From Craspedostauros australis (Eukaryota), in NCBI GenBank assembly GCA_030167865.1, contig JALAGF010004597.1:1-35224 (forward strand): a stretch of 35,224 bases of DNA. Direction: 5' to 3'. The notes below the pieces were generated by a model. The model saw only the letters and a list, made by a program, of their open reading frames with translations. It was not told the origin of the DNA and searched no databases. Each line of letters begins with the position of its first letter. Positions within the stretch are counted from its first letter, which is position 1. A program made the position numbers and the translations under genes. Shown here piece by piece: positions 1,813-35,224 of the stretch.

Positions 1813-3124
1813 TTTGCTTTGCTGTTGTTTGTGTTGTGTGTGGGTATTAATTAGTTTTTATTTTTCTTTGGTTTGGTTTGTCGGAATTCCGAATCTATCC
1901 TCCCCCAGAACAAAAGCGAGAGACAAGTCTCCTTTCATCCAAATTCGCCGCGAGATGGATGGTGTAGATCGTACCATACGTACGACTTCAAGCGGTACAA
2001 CAAGCAACCAACGTGCGTCTACTCGAAGATGCATGGTGTGGTACGCCACTCTTTCGAGAAAAAGGACAGGGCACCCGATTGGGGACAGAAGCATGGCAGG
2101 CAACAGCACCTCCTTCACGTCCGCAGAGCGCAGAAGGGCTGACTAGAATGGGAGACTCGATGCTACTACGTAGGACGGGCAAGCGTAGTCGATACGATTT
2201 CGTGGCCGCACACTCTGCGCACTGGACCAGAAAGAGATGATGTGAAAATGAGCAACTCTACTCGCCAGAGGATGTGCTTGCTGCTCCGGCAGCACTTTTG
2301 CTTTAGAGTAGTTATATCCGTGAGTTGGTGGACAGTGCGTTCAAGTTGCCAATGGTGGGTGTCTGTCTTTTTGACTGGAGAGGAAGAGGCTTGCAGCGAA
2401 GAGGTACGGCCCAGTCCATGTCAAATCTCTGTCTGTGGTCCAGATCCCTTCTCTATGTCATCCTAGCCAAGTTTTGTTGTGTTGCCTGTGGCAAGGACGA
2501 GCTCATTGACATCGGCTTGGAGAATTGTCGTATGGACAAGCAGTTGAGGGACATTTTGATTGGTCTCTGCCGCCCGTGCCGCAACAGTTTCGTCATGGAT
2601 ATTGCCTGCAAGTTGCACGATTTGGATGGTGATGAGCGAGAGGGGTGGCAAAAGTCCTGCCGCAGCAACCATGTTCGTGTGTAGCTGTTCAGTTTCGTCG
2701 AGAGTTGCGTCCACAGAATTCCAGTCTGCAGTCGCAGCCGTTTTGCCTGGGAGGTGAGCATTGAGCTCCTGTGGTTAGCAGAGCATTGATGTGCGTCGCA
2801 TGAAGAAACGCACGCGCAAACAAAACAGAGGGACAGCGGCCGTTTTTTAATGATGAGTGCAGCAATGGTGAGACAAGGGAGTGAAAGTCTCTCGCATTGA
2901 GAGGTGTAGGAGGCGGTCGATGCCAGAGTCTTGGCAATCTTCTGCACGCTTCAGAAACCTCCGTCGCGATCAGAAACGTTGTCCGTAAATCCGAATCGAG
3001 CTGGAGAAAATGGCTGGCATGCCCGCAACCTTCACTTTCGATTACAACGAAGCAGCAAACCGCTACTCTGTGCATGTGTTTCATGCACAACAGGGGCACG
3101 TGCCCAGAGGAATGATCGTCTTAC

Positions 3125-3373: not shown

Positions 3374-4302
3374 CGCGGTTGTTAGTGAGTGGTTTGCTTG
3401 TTGTGTGTGATGTTGTTTTGGATGTCGTTGTTCTGATTTTGTGAGCTATTCGCTTGGCGAGGGCTCCAAGTCACATTCTGTTGTGCTTCAGTCGTCGCCG
3501 AGTACGCGGATGTGGTGTCTATTTGTTGCTGCATTGTACTGCCCTCTGCGAACACGCCCTGTTATTGATTCCTTTCCACTCTCCGACACTTCCAAACCAT
3601 CGGCGAATGTGCGTCCAACTCTCTCCCTTGTGCACGCCCGACTACACGGGGACAAGCGCAACAGGGCGAGCGAATGCAACTTCGTGCATACAGTTTGGAG
3701 ATGAAAACGTCACCATGGAAACATGGTACATGCAGTCTTCCTCGTGAGATCAAAGTTGCTTCTGGAGGCAGCTCTCGTCAGCGCCGCTGTGCACCCATCA
3801 CGTCGAAGATGGCCAGCTGCAGCTGATGTGGTTGGCAGTGTTCGCACGTTACTGCCTTGTCTCCATTTTGCAACGGCTGTGCTTTGTCTTGTGTCCGAGC
3901 TTTTGTGTCATTTGCGCAAAGCCTTGTGCGTAGATTGCTCGAGCACACAACTCCTCTCTTTGTGCTGGATGCGGAGTGAATACAACGCAGTGAGTGGGTT
4001 TTCGGAAATGGAGATCACAGCGCTCAGCATCACTTCCATCGGAGTTTATGAGATCCGTGATCCTCGCGATCCGAAGCTTGGTGGTGTGTGCAATGTTCTA
4101 TTTATGGATATAGCAATACTTATTACACGATGATTCACGCATGCAGGAACGGGAGTGCCATATTATACTAGACAAGCTGCCGTATTACGACTACTATATG
4201 CATGAAGGACATGAGCAAAACAAGTACACCAAATCATGCTTTCATTTGAAGTAGGGGAAGATATCTACTTCTCCATAAGTGCGCCAGAGCACTTAAGCTG
4301 TT

Positions 4303-5373
4303 CTATGCCGAAACGATGTGGAGCCTCCACAAATCGTCCAGGCGTTTTGGATTTGCATCGTCCCCTGCCAGACCGCCGAAGATGAGGAGGCTGCCTCCGC
4401 CAGCATCGATGCAATCACCATCGGACCACCCACGGCACTCGGGCCATGCAGCGGCATCCTCATCAGACGATGCAGACTTGATGTACTGGCCTGTCTTTTC
4501 ATCGAGCAAGACGACATCGTTCTCGAAGCCTCCGGCTCCTTCGTGGCCCTTGGCCGACGGATCCACTTCGCCTCCAAAGATCACGGCGACTCCAACGGAT
4601 GGAAAAGCAGCCGAGATGCAGACGCTGCGCGGACGCATGTCATGGAGCTTGGTGTTGAGATTGTCCTCCTCCCAGACCCCGCCATTGCGATCAAATCGAT
4701 GTCCATCGTTCGTTTCTTCACCGCAAAAGCCGGCGACCACACCGACGAAATTGGACGAATCGAAGGTGAGGAGGTTGGGACCGCCGCGACCGCGCAGGTG
4801 CTTGGATGCTCCAAGAGCATGCCACGTGTTGGTGGGGATGTCGTAGCGATGCAGATCGGCAACGCGGCCGTGGTTGGCACTGCAACCGCCGAAGACGTAA
4901 AGGCTGTCTTCGACGCAGATCATCTTGTGGAAGGACCTTGCTTCGGGTGCATCTTCCGGTTTGCTGGGAACGACCTGCGTCCACGTTTCGGTACCGGCCG
5001 CACCGGAGCAGTCCAACTTCCACAGATCGTTCATGGCCTTCTCCTTCATGGTGATGCCGGCCCTACCACCGAAGATGTACACGAAAGAGTCCTTGTGCAC
5101 TGCCTGCGCGTGCCCCAAGCGTTGCGGCGGCGGCGTTGCCTGAATCAGACGCCACTGCATGGAAGCTGCGTCCGAGACGCCATTCTTCATGTCCAGCGCC
5201 CATGTGGCCTGGGCGTCATCCAGCGGCGTGCGTGCGACATGCTCGCCGCCATAGATGATGGCACGAGTTCCCGCACGCAGCAACGACACGCCGTGGGAGC
5301 TGCGCGCGCAAGGCGTCCCGTGTTCGGGATCAGCGCTTGCGGAGATCTTCGTCCATTTCAATGTTGGTGACAT
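4303..5373 (-). CDS. Kelch-repeat beta-propeller protein, nitrile-specifier protein (NSP)-like
   Basis: Intronless 356-aa ORF with repeated kelch GG/W motifs (IIYGGEH, YIFGGRAG, YVFGGC, VAGFCGEE, IFGGEVDP, IFGGLAG), ARSSH at the N-terminus and GGEVDPSAKGHEGAG, typical of plant NSP/ESP-like proteins. Confidence 0.85.
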   Translation of the reverse strand: MSPTLKWTKISASADPEHGTPCARSSHGVSLLRAGTRAIIYGGEHVARTPLDDAQATWALDMKNGVSDAASMQWRLIQATPPPQRLGHAQAVHKDSFVYIFGGRAGITMKEKAMNDLWKLDCSGAAGTETWTQVVPSKPEDAPEARSFHKMICVEDSLYVFGGCSANHGRVADLHRYDIPTNTWHALGASKHLRGRGGPNLLTFDSSNFVGVVAGFCGEETNDGHRFDRNGGVWEEDNLNTKLHDMRPRSVCISAAFPSVGVAVIFGGEVDPSAKGHEGAGGFENDVVLLDEKTGQYIKSASSDEDAAAWPECRGWSDGDCIDAGGGSLLIFGGLAGDDANPKRLDDLWRLHIVSA

Positions 5374-8972: not shown

Positions 8973-9970
<998 letters not shown>

Positions 9971-10039: not shown

Positions 10040-10929
10040 CATGACACGAAGAACGGCAAGCGATGGTGGAGATGTGATGATGTGGCGGAATGTGATGGTG
10101 GCAGCGGTGGCAGTGGTGCCCGTGATGGTGACGATGAAGATGATCATGGTGGTGGCAGAATGCGATGGCAAAGGTGGCTTTGATTGGCACAACGAAGGAA
10201 CCTGAAAGGTGGAAATCGAACTAAGGCGGACGTGCGACTCGCGAATGTCGCTCCATGGGCAGACGCAGACATGCGCACGCAATACCGAAGCAATTGCTAT
10301 TGGTCATCATCGTCATCACAGAACCGACGACATGCACGTCCGGAGGTGACCATCGTAGAATCAAGCGTGTGCTCGAACAGACCTGCCACATGGTAACGTG
10401 CATGGAGCCGACGGACGGAGAATAGTAGCCAGGAGTTGTAGCGTATTCCTTCTTGCATTCCGGCAGAGCTGAAGTTGTGCTCTTGAGAGCGTTGCCGCCT
10501 CGTTGAGTTGAGTTGTTTTGAGGTGAAACTACTCGATGGTGTCGTACCCACTTGTACGCTGTCGAGAAGAAGCACGTACCGCGGATGACGTTCCTTCCAT
10601 CTGCGTACTCGCACGATACAAAGCCAAAATACTACAAAGGGCTACAGAAGATCCTCATTCCAGCTTCTGTTTGATGCCAATGTCCTACAGTGTGCAAGTT
10701 ACTACATCATGCTTCATCTATTTCCTCCTGCAGCGTAATACTCGTCTGATATACAACCCGATTGACGCAATGCAGCGATACCCATCCATTCCTTCACTCT
10801 GGATTGCGCCACCATCGTTGCCGCCCAATTCGAAATCTTCATTCCATCATCCCGTGTCCGTCGAGCATGAGTTTGCACAGTTGGAAGTGTTATACGAGTA
10901 TATCGAGAACCTTCCTTTTGGCCTCCTGC

Positions 10930-11421
10930 TTAGATCATATCCGCCTTGGCCTTTTCGATCATCTCACCGAGCTCGCCGGTCTGGTACAGCTCGATCATGA
11001 TGTCGCTGCCGCCGACGAACTCACCGCAGACGTAGAGCTGCGGGATGGTGGGCCACTGGCTGAAATCCTTGACGCCTTGTCGGATGGCCTCGTCGCTGAG
11101 CACGTCGACGGTGTGGAAATCGATCTGGTAGCTCTGCAGGATCTGGGTGGCCGTGTTGGAGAAGCCGCACTGCGGGAACAGCTTGGAGCCCTTCATGAAG
11201 AGCAGGACGGGGTGGCTCTCGACGAGGGCCTCGATGCGTTCCTTCGTGATTTCGGGCGTCTCCTGGAGGAAGTCATCGGACATGGCGAGGGCGGACGTGG
11301 TCGTCGTCGCTGTGGTGGACGCAGCAGACACCATGCGGTGTGGTGCGAAGGCTTCGGCGCCTCCCATCAGGTTGGAGCTGAGGAAGGCGAGGGCGACGAC
11401 GGAGAGGAGGTTGCGGAACAT
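10930..11421 (-). CDS. Plastid-targeted monothiol (CGFS) glutaredoxin, GrxS14/Grx4-5 family
   Basis: LFMKG..FPQCGFS, IRQGVKDFSQWPTIPQLYVCGEFVGGSDIM. Signal peptide followed by AEA-FAP (ASAFAP motif) and a Ser/Thr-rich transit peptide. Confidence 0.93.
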   Translation of the reverse strand: MFRNLLSVVALAFLSSNLMGGAEAFAPHRMVSAASTTATTTTSALAMSDDFLQETPEITKERIEALVESHPVLLFMKGSKLFPQCGFSNTATQILQSYQIDFHTVDVLSDEAIRQGVKDFSQWPTIPQLYVCGEFVGGSDIMIELYQTGELGEMIEKAKADMI

Positions 11422-11849
11422 GGTGCTGGCTTGTCTCGGAGTATAGGAACGTGTTTATGGTTGTACTAGTCGTACTATGTATTGTTCTGTTGCGATGTGG
11501 TTCTGTGGACAGGGTCTCTCTTGTGGAACAACGCAAGTTCTCAAACGAGAGAGTGCGTATCGTTCGGTTTGGAACATGAACGAGCGGGATAGATGGTGTG
11601 GTTGTGGTGTTCTGTGGTTGGTTGGTCGTTGTGCGCAACAAACACAGAAAGATCTTTCGTGACGTCACGCACTGAAAGTCATTCTTCGAACACTCGATTT
11701 CACGCTTCGTCTACTTTCCTCGCATGGGCTACAATGCGCGTTGTATTCTCTCTGCGCGGTACGGATATGGCGCATTAACCAGCCTGGTATTACTAGCACA
11801 CACACAATCGATCCAAGCAAGCAAGCAAGCAATGTAATATTAACGTTGA

Positions 11850-13183
11850 TGCTTGCCCACCCCGCGTTGATGCCTTGCAACAGCGACACGACCGGGGCGA
11901 TCTTGCGATCCAACGTGCGCTGCATCAGCCCCATGTACAAGGCCAATGCCTCGAGATCCTTCTCGGATGCGTTCGAATCGCGCAGCATGTGACGGTTTGC
12001 CAGCGTATTGCAGGCACGTGTGCGTCACGATCAGGTGCAGCGAATCTCTCGTGAGGACCTGGACGAAGAGGAATTGGGGCGCAGTGCCGATCTCCAGTTG
12101 TCGACGATGGCGTGCGAGAGGGATTGCGTCAGCTGCATGGCGGAGCGGTCGTCGTAGGTCTTGCCGGTCTTGTAGTCCTCATGAGAATGCTTGATCTCCC
12201 AGCAGCTCGTGTTGGTGTTCTTTTGGAGGGTCCGGCCGATCTCCAATTCGGGGATCCTGCGTTGTGGATCGGGGACGTTGGCAAAGATGGAGAGGACGAG
12301 GTAGCGCTGCAAGAGATATTCGAGATATTGCCATTGACGACGACAATGGCGACGATGACGATGGTGATAAGGAGGAGACAACGAAGGGAAAGGATCATGT
12401 GAGCTATTCTATGAATGATGATAACGATGTAACATGGTGGGAGCATTGATGAACGTCGGCATTGTTTTCATTGGCGAAACGGAACTTGAGCATCTTGATC
12501 ATACCGCGCAGGATGTTGGCCTCGTAGGATGTGCTGATCTCGCGTTCGGCGCGCAGCCAGAGGATGAAGGCGATGATGGGTTGTGCGGATGCTTTGGATT
12601 TGTTGGGGGATGATATCGGAAAGGGAGATCTCGGGCTGTGATATCTCGTCCCTTTTGTTATCATCATCGTCGTCGTCGCTGCGTTTGGACTCTCCATTCG
12701 GTTGCTTCCGCTGCAAGCACCATCCCAAATACAGCTTCGAATGTCGGATGTACACCTCCGCCGTCGCGTGCCCAATGGGCTCTCCCTCTGTGGCATGGTG
12801 GTCGGTGTCGTCATGAAGGCAAGGCACTCACCCAATTCCGCCGAAAGTACTGGATATTGCGTCCTGGAGCTCTGCGCCAATCCATCTTCCATGAGAAGTG
12901 GCATGTCAAAGATCTGAATGAGGAGGGTCGAAAGAATCTCGGGACGATCGACAAAGTCGCGCGCAAAGACGACGAGGTTGTTGTCCTGCAACAGACTGCT
13001 GCATCGCAAGTGTTGCATCGCGTCGGCACGTCGATGGTGGATTTGCAAGGCGTCCATGGCGGCGTCGATCGCATCATTTTGATTGCTGTGGTTCACTTGC
13101 GATATGTGCCGATGCAGGGGTACAGGGTGGAAGGACGCTGTCCGTTCGTGGCAAAGCAACATCAACGCGAGGTGGATCTTCAT
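11850..13183 (-). pseudogene. Degenerate tyrosine recombinase (phage-integrase-like) gene with at least four frameshifts and several internal deletions
   Basis: Stitching frames gives MKIHLALMLL..TASF...FARDFVDRPEILSTLL...YPVLSAELGECLAFMTTPT / EPIGHATAEVYIRHSKLYLGW...ISLSDIIP / NKSKASAQPIIAFILWLRAEREISTSYEANILRGMIKMLKFRFA (core-binding/SAM-like) ... RYLVLSIFANVPDPQRRIPELEIGRTL...WEIKHSHEDYKTGKTY...NWRSALRP / FLFVQVLTRDSLHLIVTHTCLQYAGK / NRHMLRDSNASEKDLEALALYMGLMQRTLDRKIAP. Frameshifts are near 12787, 12607, 12075 and 11997. The order of motifs matches the R-K-HxxR-H-Y catalytic layout, but the first R, the second H and the Y are lost. Confidence 0.75.
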
Positions 13184-13326
13184 TGCGATGATGATTGCTT
13201 TGGCAGCCTTCGCGACAAATCTCAAAAAGTGGTGTTTCGGAACCCTATTTTTGATTACTCCCCTCATTGCCTCGCACTATGGCAGTAGATCCAGAGTGCG
13301 GACCATAGATCGTGCCATACCTTCCT

Positions 13327-14553
13327 TCACAGACGATTGCGATCCCGCAGCACCAGCTTTGTCCTCGCTACCGGGGCTGCCTTCTTCTTGGACTTCGCCA
13401 CATTCACCGGCGTTCGATTCTCTTCATCGACTGCATTGCGCTGCAAATAGGCCTCGATGCGATGATACTCGCTGTCGGGCACGAAGTCGGGCAACGCCAA
13501 GCATCGCAACGACAGATTCTTAGACACTGCCACGACGAGGCCGTCGACACCGTATGGGCTGAATGCCTGCTGGCCGCTCAAATTGATCGCTTTCAGGGTC
13601 TTGCTGCAGGCGATGATCTGCGACATGACGGGCAGATCGTCCTGCGCGATGTCGCAATGCGACAGATCCAAGACTTGCAACCGAGCAAAGCGGGGATCCA
13701 TCGTGAGGCGGTGCAACTCTTCCAGCTGCGTCGATCGCAAGGGATTGCCGGACAGCGACAACGAGCGCAATGCGACGGCGTTTTCGCACGTGGGCCGCAG
13801 ATGTGACAGGCTCAGCTGCGTCGACGACCTGCTCAGTTCCAACTCTTCAAACGATCTCGACTGCAGGATGCCATGCAACGCACGTTGCGTTTGCGGTCCA
13901 ACGTCGTTGCCTCGCAGATTCAATCGACGCAGACTGCTTCCCAACGCCGCGACGATGCAGGCCAGACCATCGTCGCTCAGATTCGTTTCGAGCAACTCGA
14001 ACTCGCACAATTTATGATGCAACGTCTCTGCCAGCGCCTGACACGCCTGCAGATCCAGCACGGCATCGCCACATTTCTGCTCGACCAACGTGCGATGACT
14101 CGACACGACGAGCGTGTCCAAGCTGCCTGACGCGCGTCCCAACGCTCGCACAGTCGCCGCCGACATGCGCACGACGCCGCGGATTTCCAATCGCTGCAGT
14201 TTGCGTTGGCACAGACCGTCGGCCAGCGCCTCGGCTTCGCTGCTGCGGAGCGTTGCATTCTGCCATAGGATGGTGTGGCATCGTGACGTCGACGCGATCA
14301 AGGTGAGAATCTGAGGCAGGTCGGCGCCACCGCAGTTTTGGAATTTGATGCACTGCCACGGATGATCCTTGGGTTTGTGGCGGATGATCTTGAGGAGCAG
14401 CGCGATGATCTCTCTGGTCTGATCGCTCGAGTTGTCGAATTGGAAGTACGAGAGGTAGAGTTCGGAGAAGGTGGAGAGATTGCTGCGTGCCGATGCCTGT
14501 TTGAGCTTGGCGGCCGTCAGGTGGGATCTGCCATGGAGGAGCAGGCGGACCAT
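13327..14553 (-). CDS. Leucine-rich repeat protein, RNI-like
   Basis: LRR units (LRRLNLRGNDVG, LRSLSLSGNPL, LQVLDLSHCDI, LKAINLSG, SLRCLAL) and a C-terminal YLQRN. First ATG at 14553; the track ORF begins at a non-ATG codon at 14586. Confidence 0.8.
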   Translation of the reverse strand: MVRLLLHGRSHLTAAKLKQASARSNLSTFSELYLSYFQFDNSSDQTREIIALLLKIIRHKPKDHPWQCIKFQNCGGADLPQILTLIASTSRCHTILWQNATLRSSEAEALADGLCQRKLQRLEIRGVVRMSAATVRALGRASGSLDTLVVSSHRTLVEQKCGDAVLDLQACQALAETLHHKLCEFELLETNLSDDGLACIVAALGSSLRRLNLRGNDVGPQTQRALHGILQSRSFEELELSRSSTQLSLSHLRPTCENAVALRSLSLSGNPLRSTQLEELHRLTMDPRFARLQVLDLSHCDIAQDDLPVMSQIIACSKTLKAINLSGQQAFSPYGVDGLVVAVSKNLSLRCLALPDFVPDSEYHRIEAYLQRNAVDEENRTPVNVAKSKKKAAPVARTKLVLRDRNRL

Positions 14554-15562
14554 GATGATTGATGCTGTTGCAGTTTGTTGTTGCAACTTTGGATGCTCTT
14601 GAAGCTGCTGTTTGTTGTGCTGATGTCACAATCGTATTGTCTTCCTTTCAATTTTGTGAACCATGAGAAGAAGAAGCTTGAGTGATCAGGATCGCTTGAG
14701 AGTGATCGTGGCAAAGAAGGACTCGTACGTGCAGTAGAATAGATTAGAGTATTCCACACGAGTATGCCTCGGTTCGACCTCTCCTCATCCTTTTCACTTA
14801 AATGGATATGGCACTGCTACACTCGTGCTGCTGCATCCAGATTTGGCATGTTCGCCCATTTGCAACCACCCCGTTGATCCCTCAACCAGCGATGATGGAA
14901 CCGACGGAGTCACTTCGGCGAAGCCAGGGTTGCATTTGGTGGGTCTCCCAGGTCTGGAAATCGATCGTTCGGCGACGGCAAAGCATCCGTTTGGTGATGC
15001 CCAAGGGGATTCCCATGATCGAGGATTTACTATGCGTTGGTCTGGGCGCTTGCATACTAAGTGGAGTAGACCTGCTGCGTGGGTCTGCATCATGTGGCTT
15101 ACCTTGAGATGTCGTTCACTCATGTGTTTGCATTGTGTTGTGATGTGTTGCATGTGTGTGCTCGTATCTTCCGGCTTTTGTTCGCGACCGTTTTCTCCGT
15201 TTGAAAGACAATTATAACGTATGAATAACGTCAAATGAGTGCGAGATGAATGATTGAATCATGTCCGGGATTGGGATGTTGACCACTTTGACTACGTTGG
15301 CCTCCTCCACAAGAAATGAGGAATCGAAATCGTTTGTTCCTTGTTCTCACCACTTTCGTCGCCCCATCTCTCACACAAAACGTCACGTCGCACCGCATCA
15401 CGCCACCAACACAGAAGAGCGCATGCGATGAAGTGATCATTGTCCCCTCGATCCCTCATTCTCCCATCTCTCATCTATCCGTGAACATCCGTCGCCCTTG
15501 TCGCCCTTCGTCACTAATTGAACCATTGTGAAGTATTCTATTACATCATATTATATTCCAAG

Positions 15563-28612: not shown

Positions 28613-31418
28613 GGCGCGCTTTCAGAAGATCATGTGTATTGGTAACATATGCTGTATGACATCCTACTGCTTAATGCAGGCGTGCACCCATTCTTTCGAG
28701 CATAACACAGTGTGCAAGGATGCTTTCCTACATTGACAACTCCATTCTACTGTTTGACTATTCTGACTAGTTTGTCGAATCCGTGTTTGGAGCTGGTGGT
28801 AAACTCATATTTATTGCCAATAAGTTACACCAACAAGCCACCAAGGTCATTTCATTCACACAAGTGTTCGCCGAAGGAATCAAAAGTGCTCTGTTGTGGT
28901 GAACAAGGAAGAGAAACCGCCAAAAGAACCGTCGCTCTGAATTGCGAACTGCAATACAGAATTGTCATCCATGATCAACCGAAGCTGAAAAAGCTTGGGC
29001 AGGGAGGCGATCACTCGTGACGAGATGTCTTGATACAATCATTGCTGTTTGTGTGACGCTGTGGAGCGAACATGGTCGATCTATTGCCTTCTGGTCTCCT
29101 CGTGTGGAGCTCTGTCTCACATAGTTCTCCAGTGCTCTGCTTTGCGTGTCGTGGCCGACACATACCTGTACCTGCGAATACTCTTACGACCTGCTCGCCC
29201 GTTTGTTGAATCGCTTGCCAAACGGAGAAGCAACGCGGCACCCCAATACAAACGCTTCGCAGTGGAAGCCATCCCGAACGACAACAGTGCCGGCAACGGC
29301 GGAATTGCCGCTGGCTATTCCAAGACTACTGCACGTCCGCTATTTGTACCGCGCGCTACATAGTCTGCATATCCGTGCTGCCAACAGCGACAACACAACC
29401 TGTACGTGGAAGATTTGACCGTAGCCGAGGGCTCAGATGCCAAACGTCAAATCAACTTCAACGACCACACGGACTTCGGGGCGTGGAGGACAACCTGTCC
29501 ACAACCTCGTTCTATTTGCGAACACGCTTCTCATGAAAGTGCAATACTCACTTCCCTTGACTAATTCCTCCCTCGCCCACCCCTCTGCTAATTGTTGTCG
29601 ATGAGTGCGGGAAAGAGCGAAACACAACATGTCTGTGATACTCCTCTTCCGTTCATTCACATTAGTGGGAGGCAGTGTTGACGCATCGCGCCCTTTTCAA
29701 CCTGCATTGGCAGATGTTCGAAGTGACGTGGTGCGACTGGCAACATTGCTTGTCCCGCTGCATCTGCTTGACCTTTCTCGATCGTTTGTGCTGGCTGCGT
29801 GTAGCATGGTAAACTACTGCCATTGCATTTTACATGCCTCGTTCTGGCGAACGTGCCTCGGCGAGATCAAGATGCCACCTACTGGTATGTACCGACAATG
29901 TCATGCATGTGTATCTTACCATACGGGTACGCGTGCCACGCGCTTCTCACTTTGATCTTGTGATTGTTTTTGCGGCCGTCCATTGTGATGTTTGCGTTGG
30001 TCATGGTCGCGGCTGCGTGGTCGGTGACAAGAAGACCTGGGATCTCTGCGCCCCATTGAAGCATCAACGATACGTGACTCATACCTGTGTTCTGCAACTC
30101 TTGACATTGTCAATGCAGAGGCGTTTCAATCGGCTCTCAGATCGAAGAACCAGTTCCTCCGCTGAAGAAGTTCCACCGAAGATACGTGATCGACCCTTAA
30201 CGAAACCCAAAGGCAGCACCTCTTGGATCAGTCGCCACGCATACGTACATCAATAGGTGTCTGTTCGTGGATTGCTGGACATGCGAAGGCAAGAGATGGA
30301 AACCACACAAGTATCGACACGAGATTGACTGCATCCCAACACCGAAGAAACTCCCGGCAACGAAATGATACCGTCACAAGAGGTTCCCCGCGGGCTCGAC
30401 GTTGAGTGCAGTCGACAGGTGACTTCATGCATTGGTTTGGATGCAATGAACTACGTCACGAGCACTGTTTCTGGTAGAGGATGACGTCGCGCTCGCAAAG
30501 CTTAATTCGAATTCATTGGGTGAGACGACCGAGACTATCCGTGCTGGACCAAATGAACGCTGTTTCAAAAGCTCCTCTGCGCATTCATCCTGGCCGTTGG
30601 CTTCGCCGAGGGACAAGCGGTGCACTCCTTCGGAGGTCATCATTACCTTGGTCCCGCCTTTGCCGGTGGAACACTGGTTGTGTCGTGAAGAAAGAATTTG
30701 AGCTTCGCAGGCAGTTGCAGCTCGTGAGGATCACACCTCTTCGCTACCGACTAGCCGATCCGAACGCCCAAACATATCTTCGTTTGGAGCAGCCTTTTTC
30801 TCTCCTGCGCATCTTCACAGTACTGATGTACAGAAGTTGTGTTTCCCCTTTGGCCCAAAACCTCGAAATGATGTCTCACACAGCTTGGCTGCTTGCCATG
30901 AGTGCCTTGTGTGTTTCATGACAGGTAGATGCGTGGGGGCAGTCGTTCTTCTTTCGTTCTTCATCGAACCCTGGCACTGGGCGTGCCTACGAACTGCTCT
31001 TGAGCTATCGTCACCTTGGAGCTCTTGGTCAAGCAATCCTGCTGGCCCAACAACCGCTTCCATCTCCCACCCAACACACACGGTCATAAAACAAACGAGA
31101 AGAGCAAACGAAGATTAGTCTCACAAGAACTCAAGGGGCCGAAGATCGAAACCCATCCAACTTAACCAACCCAAGCCAATCTTAGGTCTAATCAAGGTAC
31201 GAGCAAGATGCTGCCATTTTCGGATCTGCAACATCATGCGTGCCATACCTTTGCTTTTTCATCATGAATCGTCAACATGGCATCTTCGTCAACTATCGCT
31301 GCTGCACTTTCTACATCAGCACTCACCATGATGCTGTGTTTCAATTCCTCCCCATGTACCATAGACCCCGCGTCTGCTTGACAGCCCCGCTTTCCAACAC
31401 AGAAGCAGCTACAACAGC

Positions 31419-34400
31419 ATGTCGCCTTCAACAAAGGATGCGCGCAATGGCAGCAACACGAGCGTTGGCAAGAATGTCAATGATCTGCTCGGCAAACCTT
31501 CAACTTTGAACAGTGACCATGACGAAGGATCGATGGTGTTCTGCGATGAGCATTCCACAACGCATGGATCAAATCAGTCTCACTCCAACCGTTCCACAGC
31601 ACACGATGAGGAGGACGACAAGGACTCGCCCGCCGCACTTGTTCGTACCGAAGACAAGGCCGTGTCTATCCTCAGGATCATGGCCATCCTTTTCCTTCTC
31701 GCTGCCGCTGCGGCCGCAAGCACGACGCTGTACCTAGTTACGAGCGATGCAGAGGAGGATGCCTTCGAACGCAGCTTCGACAAGATCTCGGAACGGATCG
31801 TCGACTCCTTGCTCGAGGAGACTCGAGCCAAGTTTTGGCACGCACGTACCTTGGCTGGAAGTATTGACAGCATCATGCTGGCTGGCAACATGGACAAGCT
31901 CAACCTCTCCATGCCGCTTTGGGAGATCATGACAGAAGAAGCACGCTCTACCAGCAGTGCCAAGGTTGTGTCCTGGTCACCATTCTTGTTCGACGAGAAC
32001 GAGCTGGACCAGTTCTGGAACTTCACTATTGACCAGACAGACGGAGGTGTTCCCACATCAGGGGCAAATCCCGTCTGTAGCCTGTGTAGCAACCCGGACT
32101 GGGTCCTCGCAAACCCAGACTTCGTCATGACCCATCCCTTCTTTGGGGACTTCACTTGCCAGTCGTTCTATGACTTGGGCCAAGCTGGTGCCTTGGGACA
32201 TTGTGAACAGACCCTGCAATTCGCGTCAGCCTGCTTCTGTGCTCCGCCAGTGCTCAAGGAGGACGAGACCATCTACACAACACGCAACACTTCTCAGGGC
32301 ATATGGAGGGTCGGCTCCGATGGTTTTGCCGTTGATGACAACAGTCCGGCACCATGGAATCCAATATGGACATCCATGGCTGGTGATACCAGCACAACGA
32401 CCTTCATGTACAATCAGATGAGTGATCCCGTCCGCCAGCGCGTCCTCACAAGTCTCGTTGAAGACCGCTCCCCTGCCTTCTCCGAAGTTTTCCGCCGTGA
32501 AGGTGCCTACTACGAAAACTACGGCAAGGGCAACATTGGCGAATTGGCCACACTCATTGTCTTCCCCGTGTTCGGACCGGAATCTGACGATGTCGTCATT
32601 GGATCAGTCGTCCTGGAGATCGACTGGAGAGACTTCGTCCCCTCCAACTTCCCTCTTGATGGGGATCTGGTCGATATCGTGGTCTCCAACTCATGCGGGC
32701 AGAACTACACATTCCGCGTTAACGCCAACACCAACGAACTCGATTTGATTGGCGAGGGCGACCTCCACGATACCAAGTTCAGCGAGCACGTGTACGGTTC
32801 CGCATTTGAAGAGTACAACAGCATCGTAACCAGCGCGTCCAAAGCCGGAGACGCGGTTGATCAATTGATCGATTTCTGCCGGTACCGTTTCCTCATCTAT
32901 CCCAGACAGGAGCTCCGCGACGAGCATGTGACCAACGAGCCAATCATCTTGACCATCCTGGTATGCACCATCTTCGTCTTCACCACGCTCGTCTTCTTCC
33001 TCTACGACTTCTTCGTCAGACGTCGCCAACGTCTGGTGATGGACCGCGCCACGAGAACGGGCGAGATCGTGTCTTCCCTCTTCCCAGAGAACGTCCGAGA
33101 ACGGCTCTACAATTCACCGGCGAAGAACCAACTTATCCGTATCGACGATGAAGACCATCTGGACACAGATAGCACGGTGAAGTCAAGCAGCAACTTCCGA
33201 TCGCCAAAGGCAAGCATCAAGAGCTTCCTATCTGCCAACGAGAACGGGTTGCTCGGATCTGAGCCCATCGCCGACCTCTTCCCTGACACGACAGTGGTCT
33301 TCATCGATATCTCCGGTTTCACCGCATGGTCAAGCGAGCGTGACCCAAGCCAGGTGTTTCGCCTCCTGGAATCGATCTATCAAACCTTCGATATCATCGC
33401 CAAGCGCCGCAGCATCTTCAAGGTCGAGACTATCGGGGACAGCTACGTCGCGGCCACTGGTCTTCCGGAACCACGCAAGGATCATGCCGTCGTTATGGTC
33501 CGCTTTGCATACGAGTGCCTCAACGAGATGAGGTCCTTGGTGAAGCGACTGGAGGTGCTGCTGGGTCCATCCACTGGCGACCTCAAGGCGCGATGTGGTA
33601 TGCACAGCGGTCCTGTGACAGCGGGTGTCCTCCGCGGTGCCAAGGCGAGATTCCAGCTCTTCGGCGACACCATGAACGTGGCTGCTCGGTTGGAGAGCGC
33701 AGGAACGGAGGGACGGATCCACATCTCCAAGGAGACCGCGGACATACTCAAGGCAGCAGGCAAGTCCAACTGGGTGACGACTCGGCAGGAGCTAGTCTCC
33801 ATCAAGGGCAAGGGCGAGATGCAGACGTTCTGGGCCAGTCCGAGGAACCGCAAACGATTCCCCAAAGGCGCTCGCAATAGTGGCACGCAATCAGACACGG
33901 GCAGCGATATCGAAAGCGTCGCCCTTTCCAACATGTCGGCCGACTCGGATGCGATGTTGGATGCAACTTCCAACCAGAAGGTCCAGCGTCTCATCGATTG
34001 GAACGTCCAAGTCATGGTCAGCCTCTTGGAGCAAGTCGTGAAGAAACGCCACCTTGTTGCTACGCAGGCAGATCCCATCGAAATGATCAGCGCTGCCGAG
34101 CAAGCCATCACTCGCAACCCCGACATCGTGTTCGATGAGATCACCGAGGTCATCCCCGTTCCGCATTTCCAATCAAGCAGTGTCAGTGCAAGCGAGACCC
34201 CTGGCGAAATCGATCCGGCTATCCAGAATGAGCTCACTTCATTCGTTTGCCGTCTCTCCGGTCTCTACCACGACGTTCCATTCCACAACTTCGAGCATGT
34301 GAGCCACGTGACCATGTCGGCTGGCAAGCTGATGAAACGCATCGTCGCCCCAGACAGTGTCGACTACAATCAGGACGCCATCGACATCGCCCACAAGGTG

Positions 34401-35224
34401 CACGACGTGACATACGGCATCAGCTCGAACCCGTTGATGCAGTTCGCCATCGTCTTCGCGGCCGTCATCCATGACGTGGACCACACCGGCCTCCCGAATG
34501 CGGAGCTCGTACGGATGCAGACACCTGCCTCCGTGGCCTACCGTGGCAAGTCCGTTGCTGAGCAGAACTCGGTGGACGTGGCGTGGAACACGCTGATGCT
34601 GCCAGAGTTCGCAGGCTTGCGACGATGCATCTACACCACCGTGGACGAGCTGAAGCACTTCCGCCAGCTCGTGGTGAACATCGTGATGGCAACCGACATC
34701 GCTGACAAGGAGCTGCAAGCATTGCGTCGCAAGCGTTGGGCTGTTGCATTTGACAGCGGGTCGCCCACCAGCATCCCGGAGCACGTCGCGACCGTCACCA
34801 GGAATGCCACAGGTGGATTTGGAGGTGGCAATGGCAGCGATAGCGATGGCGGCGACACAAGCAACATGGACCGCCGTGCGACGATCGTGCTGGAGTACAT
34901 CATCCAGGCCTCGGATGTCGCGCACACCATGCAGCACTGGCACACATACCAGAAGTGGAACGAGCGCCTCTTCTTCGAGCGCTACAAGGCCTATCTGGAT
35001 GGTCACGAGAACGAAGATCCATCCATCGGTTGGTACAAGGGCGAGATCGGGTTCTTCGACTTCTACATCATCCCGCTGGCGAAGAAGCTCAAGGAGTGTG
35101 GCGTATTTGGAGTATCGCACCATGAGTACCTCCGATACGCAGAGGGCAACCGAATGGAATGGGAGAAGAAAGGGCAGGACATTGTGAAGAAGATGCACGC
35201 AGCTGCGGTGACGAAGTTTGGCAT
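31419..35224 (+). CDS. Receptor-type class III nucleotide (probably guanylyl) cyclase fused to a class I cyclic-nucleotide phosphodiesterase; 3' end just beyond the window
   Basis: Frame open from ATG 31419 to the window end; with no stop codon it is absent from the ORF track. TM1 at about 31665-31740, an extracellular CHASE-like region, TM2 at about 32940-33005, cyclase at about 33265-33835 (FIDISGFTAWSS, KVETIGDSY, GMHSGPV, RFQLFGDTMNVAARLES, KGKGEMQTFW), PDEase at about 34265-35170 (FHNFEH, IHDVDHTG, VMATDI, QASDVAH, GFFDFYIIPL). Confidence 0.93.
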   Translation, partial: MSPSTKDARNGSNTSVGKNVNDLLGKPSTLNSDHDEGSMVFCDEHSTTHGSNQSHSNRSTAHDEEDDKDSPAALVRTEDKAVSILRIMAILFLLAAAAAASTTLYLVTSDAEEDAFERSFDKISERIVDSLLEETRAKFWHARTLAGSIDSIMLAGNMDKLNLSMPLWEIMTEEARSTSSAKVVSWSPFLFDENELDQFWNFTIDQTDGGVPTSGANPVCSLCSNPDWVLANPDFVMTHPFFGDFTCQSFYDLGQAGALGHCEQTLQFASACFCAPPVLKEDETIYTTRNTSQGIWRVGSDGFAVDDNSPAPWNPIWTSMAGDTSTTTFMYNQMSDPVRQRVLTSLVEDRSPAFSEVFRREGAYYENYGKGNIGELATLIVFPVFGPESDDVVIGSVVLEIDWRDFVPSNFPLDGDLVDIVVSNSCGQNYTFRVNANTNELDLIGEGDLHDTKFSEHVYGSAFEEYNSIVTSASKAGDAVDQLIDFCRYRFLIYPRQELRDEHVTNEPIILTILVCTIFVFTTLVFFLYDFFVRRRQRLVMDRATRTGEIVSSLFPENVRERLYNSPAKNQLIRIDDEDHLDTDSTVKSSSNFRSPKASIKSFLSANENGLLGSEPIADLFPDTTVVFIDISGFTAWSSERDPSQVFRLLESIYQTFDIIAKRRSIFKVETIGDSYVAATGLPEPRKDHAVVMVRFAYECLNEMRSLVKRLEVLLGPSTGDLKARCGMHSGPVTAGVLRGAKARFQLFGDTMNVAARLESAGTEGRIHISKETADILKAAGKSNWVTTRQELVSIKGKGEMQTFWASPRNRKRFPKGARNSGTQSDTGSDIESVALSNMSADSDAMLDATSNQKVQRLIDWNVQVMVSLLEQVVKKRHLVATQADPIEMISAAEQAITRNPDIVFDEITEVIPVPHFQSSSVSASETPGEIDPAIQNELTSFVCRLSGLYHDVPFHNFEHVSHVTMSAGKLMKRIVAPDSVDYNQDAIDIAHKVHDVTYGISSNPLMQFAIVFAAVIHDVDHTGLPNAELVRMQTPASVAYRGKSVAEQNSVDVAWNTLMLPEFAGLRRCIYTTVDELKHFRQLVVNIVMATDIADKELQALRRKRWAVAFDSGSPTSIPEHVATVTRNATGGFGGGNGSDSDGGDTSNMDRRATIVLEYIIQASDVAHTMQHWHTYQKWNERLFFERYKAYLDGHENEDPSIGWYKGEIGFFDFYIIPLAKKLKECGVFGVSHHEYLRYAEGNRMEWEKKGQDIVKKMHAAAVTKFG

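Follow-up and report, generated by a model that had tools for sequence, protein, structure and literature searches.

Tyrosine recombinases of the Xer/Cre type (XerA, XerD, XerH, Cre, lambda Int) share a two-domain fold, made of a helical core-binding domain and a catalytic domain. One tyrosine recombinase tied to the heterokont plastid, TyrC, is encoded by the plastid genomes of Heterosigma akashiwo and Kryptoperidinium foliaceum; it has about 300 residues, is thought to have been laterally acquired and is speculated by its authors to turn multimeric plastid DNA into monomers (PMC2410131, PMC2873285). Here, we analyze a stretch of 35,224 nucleotides from Craspedostauros australis (contig JALAGF010004597.1), hereafter the window, in whose coordinates all positions are given. 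Its minus strand carries, between 11866 and 13183, the relic of a gene that is very probably a non-functional pseudogene of a real family of nuclear, two-domain tyrosine recombinases. The pseudogene itself is ordinary, and its value lies in pointing to a conserved protein family with uninformative labels.

How does this family compare with the described systems? It shares the R-K-HxxR-H-Y catalytic set with the Xer/Cre enzymes, and its HxxR and GHS motifs align with those of XerD, but its members are about twice as long, and the predicted structure adds a domain of four helices at the N terminus, a long helical insert and a linker without order. Unlike the Xer/Cre enzymes, it is nuclear-encoded in eukaryotes, behind organelle-type leaders. 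Like TyrC, it is a tyrosine recombinase with a link, here putative, to the heterokont plastid; whereas TyrC is short and plastid-encoded, its members have 550-750 residues, are nuclear and are putatively imported, a distinction drawn by description (PMC2410131, PMC2873285).

The likeness of the relic to this family is real and not due to chance. When a 125-residue piece (window:12031-12408:-) was compared by phmmer with 1.84 billion proteins, 141 matches had an expectation value (E) of 1e-3 or less and 45 of 1e-10 or less. The best reached 5e-21, at 53-56% identity, and the matches were mostly proteins of 550-750 residues, aligned near their C-terminal third. A family profile of 557 positions (A1), built from 53 full-length relatives, matched five colinear pieces of the window, all on the minus strand:

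13276-12407, minus strand: profile positions 10-82 and 165-289, E 1e-22
12827-12471, minus strand: profile positions 190-237, E 7e-9
12408-12034, minus strand: profile positions 354-444, E 1e-30
12178-11843, minus strand: profile positions 435-477, E 0.02
12024-11668, minus strand: profile positions 491-543, E 7e-9

Among all 1234 six-frame pieces of the window, nothing outside the relic scored better than E 0.48. The raw relic pieces gave no Pfam match (0/5), and word-indexed protein searches with two of them came back empty.

An initial annotation, made from the letters of the window, had joined several minus-strand open reading frame fragments into one tyrosine-recombinase-like protein spanning 11850-13183. 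The peptides it quoted were all found on the minus strand in the frames it gave, spread over three reading frames, and the five colinear matches to a single family bear out the joining. Its limits agree with a start codon at 13183-13181 and with homology that stops at 11866. The motifs had also been read well: the Lys motif is DYKT, HMLR corresponds in the alignment to the PHLLR (HxxR) of the family, and ALALYMG stands before the position of the family GHS motif. Frameshift-aware alignments of the relic with three relatives (P0003, P0002 and P0009) gave identities of 163/335, 162/321 and 157/337 aligned codons. The relic was colinear with the family, with four frameshifts placed identically in 3/3 alignments, at about 12783, 12608, 12071-12074 and 11992. 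The resulting map of the locus is as follows:

11866..13183, minus strand: whole pseudogene, from the five colinear profile matches and the alignments to P0003, P0002 and P0009
13130..13183, minus strand: putative leader by a crude rule, with Met, a short hydrophobic stretch and small residues, then Phe (…TAS before F), in the manner of diatom plastid presequences; its letters are MKIHLALMLLCHERTAS followed by F
12785..13183, minus strand: piece 1, comprising the leader, the small helical domain of the N terminus and the beginning of the core-binding domain (profile 10-82 and 165-190); it includes a 29-residue match to P0003 at 62% identity
12609..12782, minus strand: piece 2, in another frame, a core-binding helix (…ATAEVYIRHSKLYLGW…; profile 190-237, E 7e-9), flanked by the frameshifts at about 12783 and about 12608
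12440..12607, minus strand: piece 3, core-binding helices (…FILWLRAEREISTSYEANILRGMIKMLKFRF…; profile 234-289); its DNA matches positions 4224-4385 of metagenome contig L035 at 68% identity, on the opposite strand
12346..12439, minus strand: wrecked middle, with homology lost and stops
12075..12345, minus strand: piece 4, start of the catalytic domain (profile 354-444, E 1e-30); the first catalytic Arg has become Pro, at 12252-12250 (IPELE, where the family has IRELE), and the Lys motif DYKTGK is kept, with its Lys at 12171-12169
11993..12070, minus strand: piece 5, in another frame (…LFVQ…LTRDSLHLIVTHTCLQYAGK; profile 435-477, E 0.02), with five residues gone and bounded by the shifts at about 12071-12074 and about 11992
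11866..11991, minus strand: piece 6, with HxxR kept (His 11991-11989, Arg 11982-11980) and two in-frame deletions, one of 8-9 residues (MIVTHVRD) and another of about 9, with which the second catalytic His and the nucleophilic Tyr are lost

The decay proposed by the initial annotation is extensive, and besides the frameshifts it involves stops, deletions and the loss of catalytic residues, all read from the assembly sequence. In the wrecked middle (12439-12346), which the three alignments treat differently, homology is gone, every frame used contains a stop (12411-12409, 12406-12404, 12397-12395) and about 64 profile positions, the DIPxIxELRKLHR… block at 290-353, are left unmatched. Profile positions 83-164 are absent as well, in-frame deletions have removed 5, 8-9 and about 9 residues, and the normal stop is gone, leaving a frame that continues to 11665. 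About 439 codons are left, against 550-750 residues in intact relatives. We counted 62 near-invariant columns, defined by conservation in 90% or more of 78 relatives: the relic keeps 41, has 8 substituted and 13 deleted, whereas the family median is 62/62. Three of the six catalytic residues are lost (in the numbering of the intact relative P0171), namely the first Arg, now Pro (R379>P), the second His (H508) and the Tyr nucleophile (Y517), with S509 and D518 deleted alongside the last two; the Lys motif and HxxR are retained. In a quick tree with 114 rows, the terminal branch of the relic measures 0.69, where the median is 0.43.

Could the gene nevertheless work, its apparent breaks being introns, programmed frameshifts or mistakes of the assembly? 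Some relatives do have one short intron, and the relic has a GTGAGT after codon 117, but homology crosses every shift directly, and at none of the four agreed frameshifts is there extra sequence to make up an intron. The GTGAGT (at 12831) itself stands inside homologous coding sequence, and the 44-nucleotide intron that it could have opened was dismissed for this reason. Nor could splicing restore a His and a Tyr that are deleted in frame or an Arg that has become Pro. Such in-frame loss of catalytic residues is not the type of change that assembly errors produce. In addition, the glutaredoxin, Arf, Kelch, GLE1, ubiquitin hydrolase and cyclase-phosphodiesterase genes of the window are intact, as are its other long frames, and a general assembly error is hence unlikely. 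A working gene is, on this evidence, barely conceivable.

The remnant intron acceptor that had been proposed at about 12307 finds no support: its CAG is a Gln codon (Q360) kept in at least 90% of relatives, and the profile alignment passes through it uninterrupted. Scanning metagenome contigs, we found 351 relatives and kept 80 loci; in 71/80 the whole match is a single open frame, and the other 9 are split once, with a donor-like start of the break (GTAAG, GTGAG or GTACG) in 7/9. Some lineages thus carry one short intron, placed elsewhere than the proposed acceptor. We dismissed recoding as an explanation for an in-frame TGA in three loci (L021, L023 and L026). A GT donor is visible at the break in L023, whose relative L049 shows a 58-nucleotide gap at this point; no donor is visible at the TGA of L021 and L026, and its placement inside an intron is presumed.

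The fold of the family was assessed on the intact P0171, modeled by AlphaFold2 with a 78-row alignment. The model reached a predicted local distance difference test (pLDDT) of 87.9 and a predicted template modeling score (pTM) of 0.75. Foldseek found 41 matches in the PDB at E of 1e-3 or less, and all among the matches listed are tyrosine recombinases: XerA (6.5e-6), Cre (2e-5, with a template modeling score of 0.68 by target over about 400 columns), XerH, lambda Int and an integron integrase. The recombinase identity initially given to the relic is thus that of a family whose intact member is predicted to fold as one. Beyond the Cre-like core, the model places the additional domain, linker and insert mentioned above. 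A profile search of PDB sequences returned XerD as its sole match (E 0.058), with PHLLR and GHS lining up with PHVLR and GHS of XerD. Each of the residues R379, K406, H479, R482, H508 and Y517 is conserved in 90% or more of the 78 rows. One member, P0058, has a sterile alpha motif (SAM) domain at its N terminus instead of the usual small helical domain.

Existing resources say little about these proteins. PF00589 is matched by 24/78 members at E of 0.1 or less, the best at 5e-8. The equivalog cut-offs that NCBIfam sets for the chromosome-dimer resolvases XerC, XerD and XerA are not reached (best scores of 15-22 bits against 220-371), and 8/12 proteins have no match there. Members carry source names such as "hypothetical protein", "integrase" or automatic domain names, and the ESM Atlas clusters obtained with P0162 as query are all "hypothetical protein". 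Full-text literature searches returned no report of a nuclear-encoded, organelle-targeted tyrosine recombinase and no paper on the family.

Is the relic the original gene of its lineage or a spare copy? The diatom-like metagenome contig L035 is informative in this regard, since it carries Arf (plus strand), glutaredoxin (minus strand) and a recombinase frame that stays open over 622 residues to the contig end (plus strand). The order in the window is Arf (plus), glutaredoxin (minus) and the relic (minus). The features involved are these:

8973..9970, plus strand: Arf-family GTPase gene in two exon-like frames (PF00025), synteny anchor
10933..11421, minus strand: glutaredoxin gene, intact, whose leader is of the plastid type (…GGAEA before FAP; PF00462, E 6e-19), synteny anchor
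11857..11872, no strand assigned: left arm of a 16-nucleotide inverted repeat (pair I10), on the last pseudogene codons
13160..13175, no strand assigned: right arm of the same repeat (pair I10), on pseudogene codons 3-8

The Arf and glutaredoxin DNA blocks have the same orientation in the window and in L035, at 76-82% identity, whereas three recombinase DNA blocks have opposite orientations, at 65-85% identity. Taken separately, glutaredoxin is 69% identical in protein and 76-82% in DNA, and Arf is 79-93% identical in protein and 78-81% in DNA. The relic thus occupies the position that the intact gene has in a related lineage, an ancestral locus, but flipped. At its two ends lies the 16-nucleotide inverted repeat (15/16 complementary), whose score was reached by 0/500 shuffles and by 2/3000 position-matched pairs of the window. 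The repeat and the reversed gene in L035 jointly suggest an inversion in place. The plus strand at 11849-11872 reads as ATG plus seven codons that resemble the first eight codons of the relic. As for the neighbors, the window glutaredoxin is of the monothiol type, with a textbook diatom plastid leader (…AEA before FAP), and the L035 glutaredoxin (2108-2753, minus strand) contains, close to the 3' end, an intron absent from the window gene. A leucine-rich-repeat neighbor was rejected as synteny shared with another contig, L038 (no similarity at E<1e-5).

Since the relic adjoins the same Arf and glutaredoxin genes as the intact copy of L035, it may be the original gene rather than a duplicate. 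The alternative, put forward by the initial annotation, is that an intact, functional paralogue exists elsewhere in the same genome and that the locus is redundant junk, a dead duplicate and not a gene loss. The family is widely kept in diatom-type sequences, and full loss would be unusual, which speaks for a surviving copy. Yet the relic sits where L035 has its intact gene, the metagenomes show a single flank context for the gene within each taxon seen, and the proteins that we gathered share at most about 50% identity with the pseudogene. We regard a dead duplicate as rather unlikely.

The gene is inverted between two lineages, it is bracketed in the window by the sequence TATGG (plus strand, 11766 and 13278), and tyrosine recombinases are also carried by transposons. 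Crypton recombinases and their domesticated DUF3504 derivatives are, like the family, eukaryotic nuclear genes that the host has sometimes domesticated; the stramenopile group CryptonS is reported from oomycetes and one diatom, with terminal direct repeats of 5-6 bp that are mostly TATGG (PMC3212892). The relic could accordingly be the remnant of a Crypton, especially a CryptonS, or of a DIRS-like element inserted beside the glutaredoxin gene. The TATGG pair was rejected as a CryptonS signature and is judged to be chance: around the gene elsewhere, the sequence occurs on the same strand in both 300-nucleotide flanks at 1/42 loci, with flank counts at expectation. Crypton copies stand at differing sites, whereas those of the family stand at fixed loci with conserved flanks. 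Among copies at least 85% identical in DNA, the flanks were homologous in 376/378 comparable pairs, all from metagenome contigs rather than whole genomes, and the neighbors of family loci are ordinary nuclear genes (TCP-1, CDC20, CSN8, Brf1, Upf1-like helicase). DUF3504 does not appear among the families listed for the 78 members, 25 of the 27 matched.

Around the relic itself, the absence of transposon structure noted at the outset was upheld. DIRS-like retrotransposons carry a reverse transcriptase, an RNase H or a methyltransferase, and Pfam found none of these in the frames beside the relic, nor a transposase or peptidase. The flanking frames are those of host genes, among them Arf, glutaredoxin and one for a leucine-rich-repeat protein; plus-strand frames over the relic had 0 Pfam matches, a repeat search of the window gave no long terminal repeats around it, and Rfam matched nothing in window positions 10500-14800. 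In viral contigs, 14 pattern matches included 0 relatives. Moreover, organelle-type leaders would make no sense on a nuclear transposase. From the fixed loci with conserved flanks, the ordinary neighbors, the short introns beginning with GT in some lineages, the synteny with L035, the lack of relatives among the viral contigs and the unenriched TATGG, we conclude that the family gene is a host gene rather than a mobile element, and a transposon remnant is highly improbable.

Where would the protein act? The N terminus of the relic had been likened to a signal peptide with an ASAF-type motif, and the same pattern of signal peptide plus Phe recurs in many intact diatom-type relatives. We scored it by a crude rule of our own, which asks for a hydrophobic region and then a small residue before Phe, or before any of F/W/Y/L. 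Of 62 diatom-type rows starting with Met, 35 have the hydrophobic region, 17 also the small residue before Phe and 27 the broader motif; with shuffled N termini, 1.9 pass with Phe on average and 7 at most, against the 17 observed. Among the 36 diatom-type rows with at least 30 residues ahead of the profile, the corresponding counts are 25, 12 and 18, and among 20 rows of other clades under the same length filter they are 3, 0 and 3. The leaders of the relic and of the neighboring glutaredoxin both pass.

The family extends over a wide range of eukaryotes. Its named diatom members come from Minutocellus, Mayamaea, a Bacillariaceae metagenome-assembled genome and an MMETSP diatom; green algae are represented by Botryococcus, Tetraselmis and Micractinium, and dinoflagellates by Breviolum. 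Members also occur in heterotrophs: Achlya hypogyna and Balamuthia mandrillaris, from genome contigs of 27 and 151 kb, and Dermamoeba algensis and Salpingoeca urceolata, from transcriptome records that could be contamination. The N termini of these heterotroph members are basic and without acidic residues. The proteins concerned are P0087, P0101, P0055 and P0068, from an oomycete, two amoebozoans and a choanoflagellate. In organisms lacking plastids, such basic N termini hint at a mitochondrial version of the protein.

Among prokaryotes, a pattern scan of one genome per species, which finds only proteins keeping two motifs, recovered 23 relatives, all cyanobacterial. They sit on bacterial contigs, with 1-5 matches per genome, are 550-680 residues long and reach as much as 419 bits with the eukaryotic profile. 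They fall within no NCBIfam family, and 3/10 exceed 27.1 bits with PF00589. In the quick tree, unrooted and with 114 rows, 19 cyanobacterial and 4 unnamed proteins are set apart from 91 eukaryote-type rows by a branch of 100% support; this topology fits one transfer between cyanobacteria and eukaryotes and, being unrooted, leaves its direction either way. These uncharacterized cyanobacterial integrases (e.g., L081, L082, L083, L084) are full-length relatives like the eukaryotic proteins, but they have no leader, and some are in tandem or near primase-polymerase genes or insertion sequences. Elainella saxicola, with five matches in its genome, has two tandem pairs (L092 2149-5641, L093 2040-5532), which recall the paired recombinases XerC/XerD. 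Three other loci (L088 4060-6915, L089 1840-3803, L091 4772-6475) hold relatives beside a primase-polymerase/DUF3987 gene or insertion-sequence transposases, one of them truncated. In these bacteria, the family resembles a component of mobile elements.

These observations can be assembled into one account, to which we give a probability of roughly one in three: an ancient nuclear family, imported into organelles and sharing ancestry with cyanobacterial integrases, recombines organelle DNA, and its gene was lost here after a microhomology-mediated flip that severed it from its promoter. The gene body would have flipped in place, perhaps through the 16-nucleotide inverted repeat at its ends. This would have parted the recombinase gene from a promoter region shared head-to-head with the glutaredoxin gene, and the gene, once cut off, would have decayed. 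An intact diatom protein would enter the plastid by its signal peptide and Phe presequence, and there catalyze Cre/Xer-like site-specific recombination on organelle DNA, such as the resolution of multimers, through a phosphotyrosyl intermediate. A plastid role of this sort, Xer-like resolution or the flipping of inverted repeats, had been put forward by the initial annotation and would hold for the intact members.

Several observations weigh against this account. The members in an oomycete, amoebae and a choanoflagellate, with their mitochondrial-looking N termini, argue against a plastid-only role. Plastid import of the diatom members is deduced from the crude leader rule, and most family members score below the Pfam threshold. 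The direction of the inversion is read from comparison with a single contig (L035) and from a short repeat spotted post hoc, and L035 and the relic belong to different subclades of the diatom-type clade, not to close sisters.

The interest of the family lies in the combination of a full catalytic set, a predicted recombinase fold, a fixed nuclear locus, leaders resembling those for organelle import and prokaryotic relatives found only among cyanobacteria. To our knowledge, no dedicated enzyme for site-specific recombination on organelle DNA has been known in algae, and the family may bear on this process in algal organelle genomes and on the resolution of plastid DNA multimers. If the account is true, the protein would be imported into the plastid in diatoms, and into the plastid or the mitochondrion elsewhere, and would resolve multimers of organelle DNA or switch its isomers by site-specific recombination. 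Should it act on defined sites, the family would also be of interest to plastid engineering. The only related proposals that our literature searches returned concern the plastid-encoded TyrC (PMC2410131, PMC2873285).

Away from the relic, the plus strand of the window at 31365-35222 carries a long frame that fuses guanylate/adenylate cyclase and cyclic-nucleotide phosphodiesterase domains and exits at the window end.

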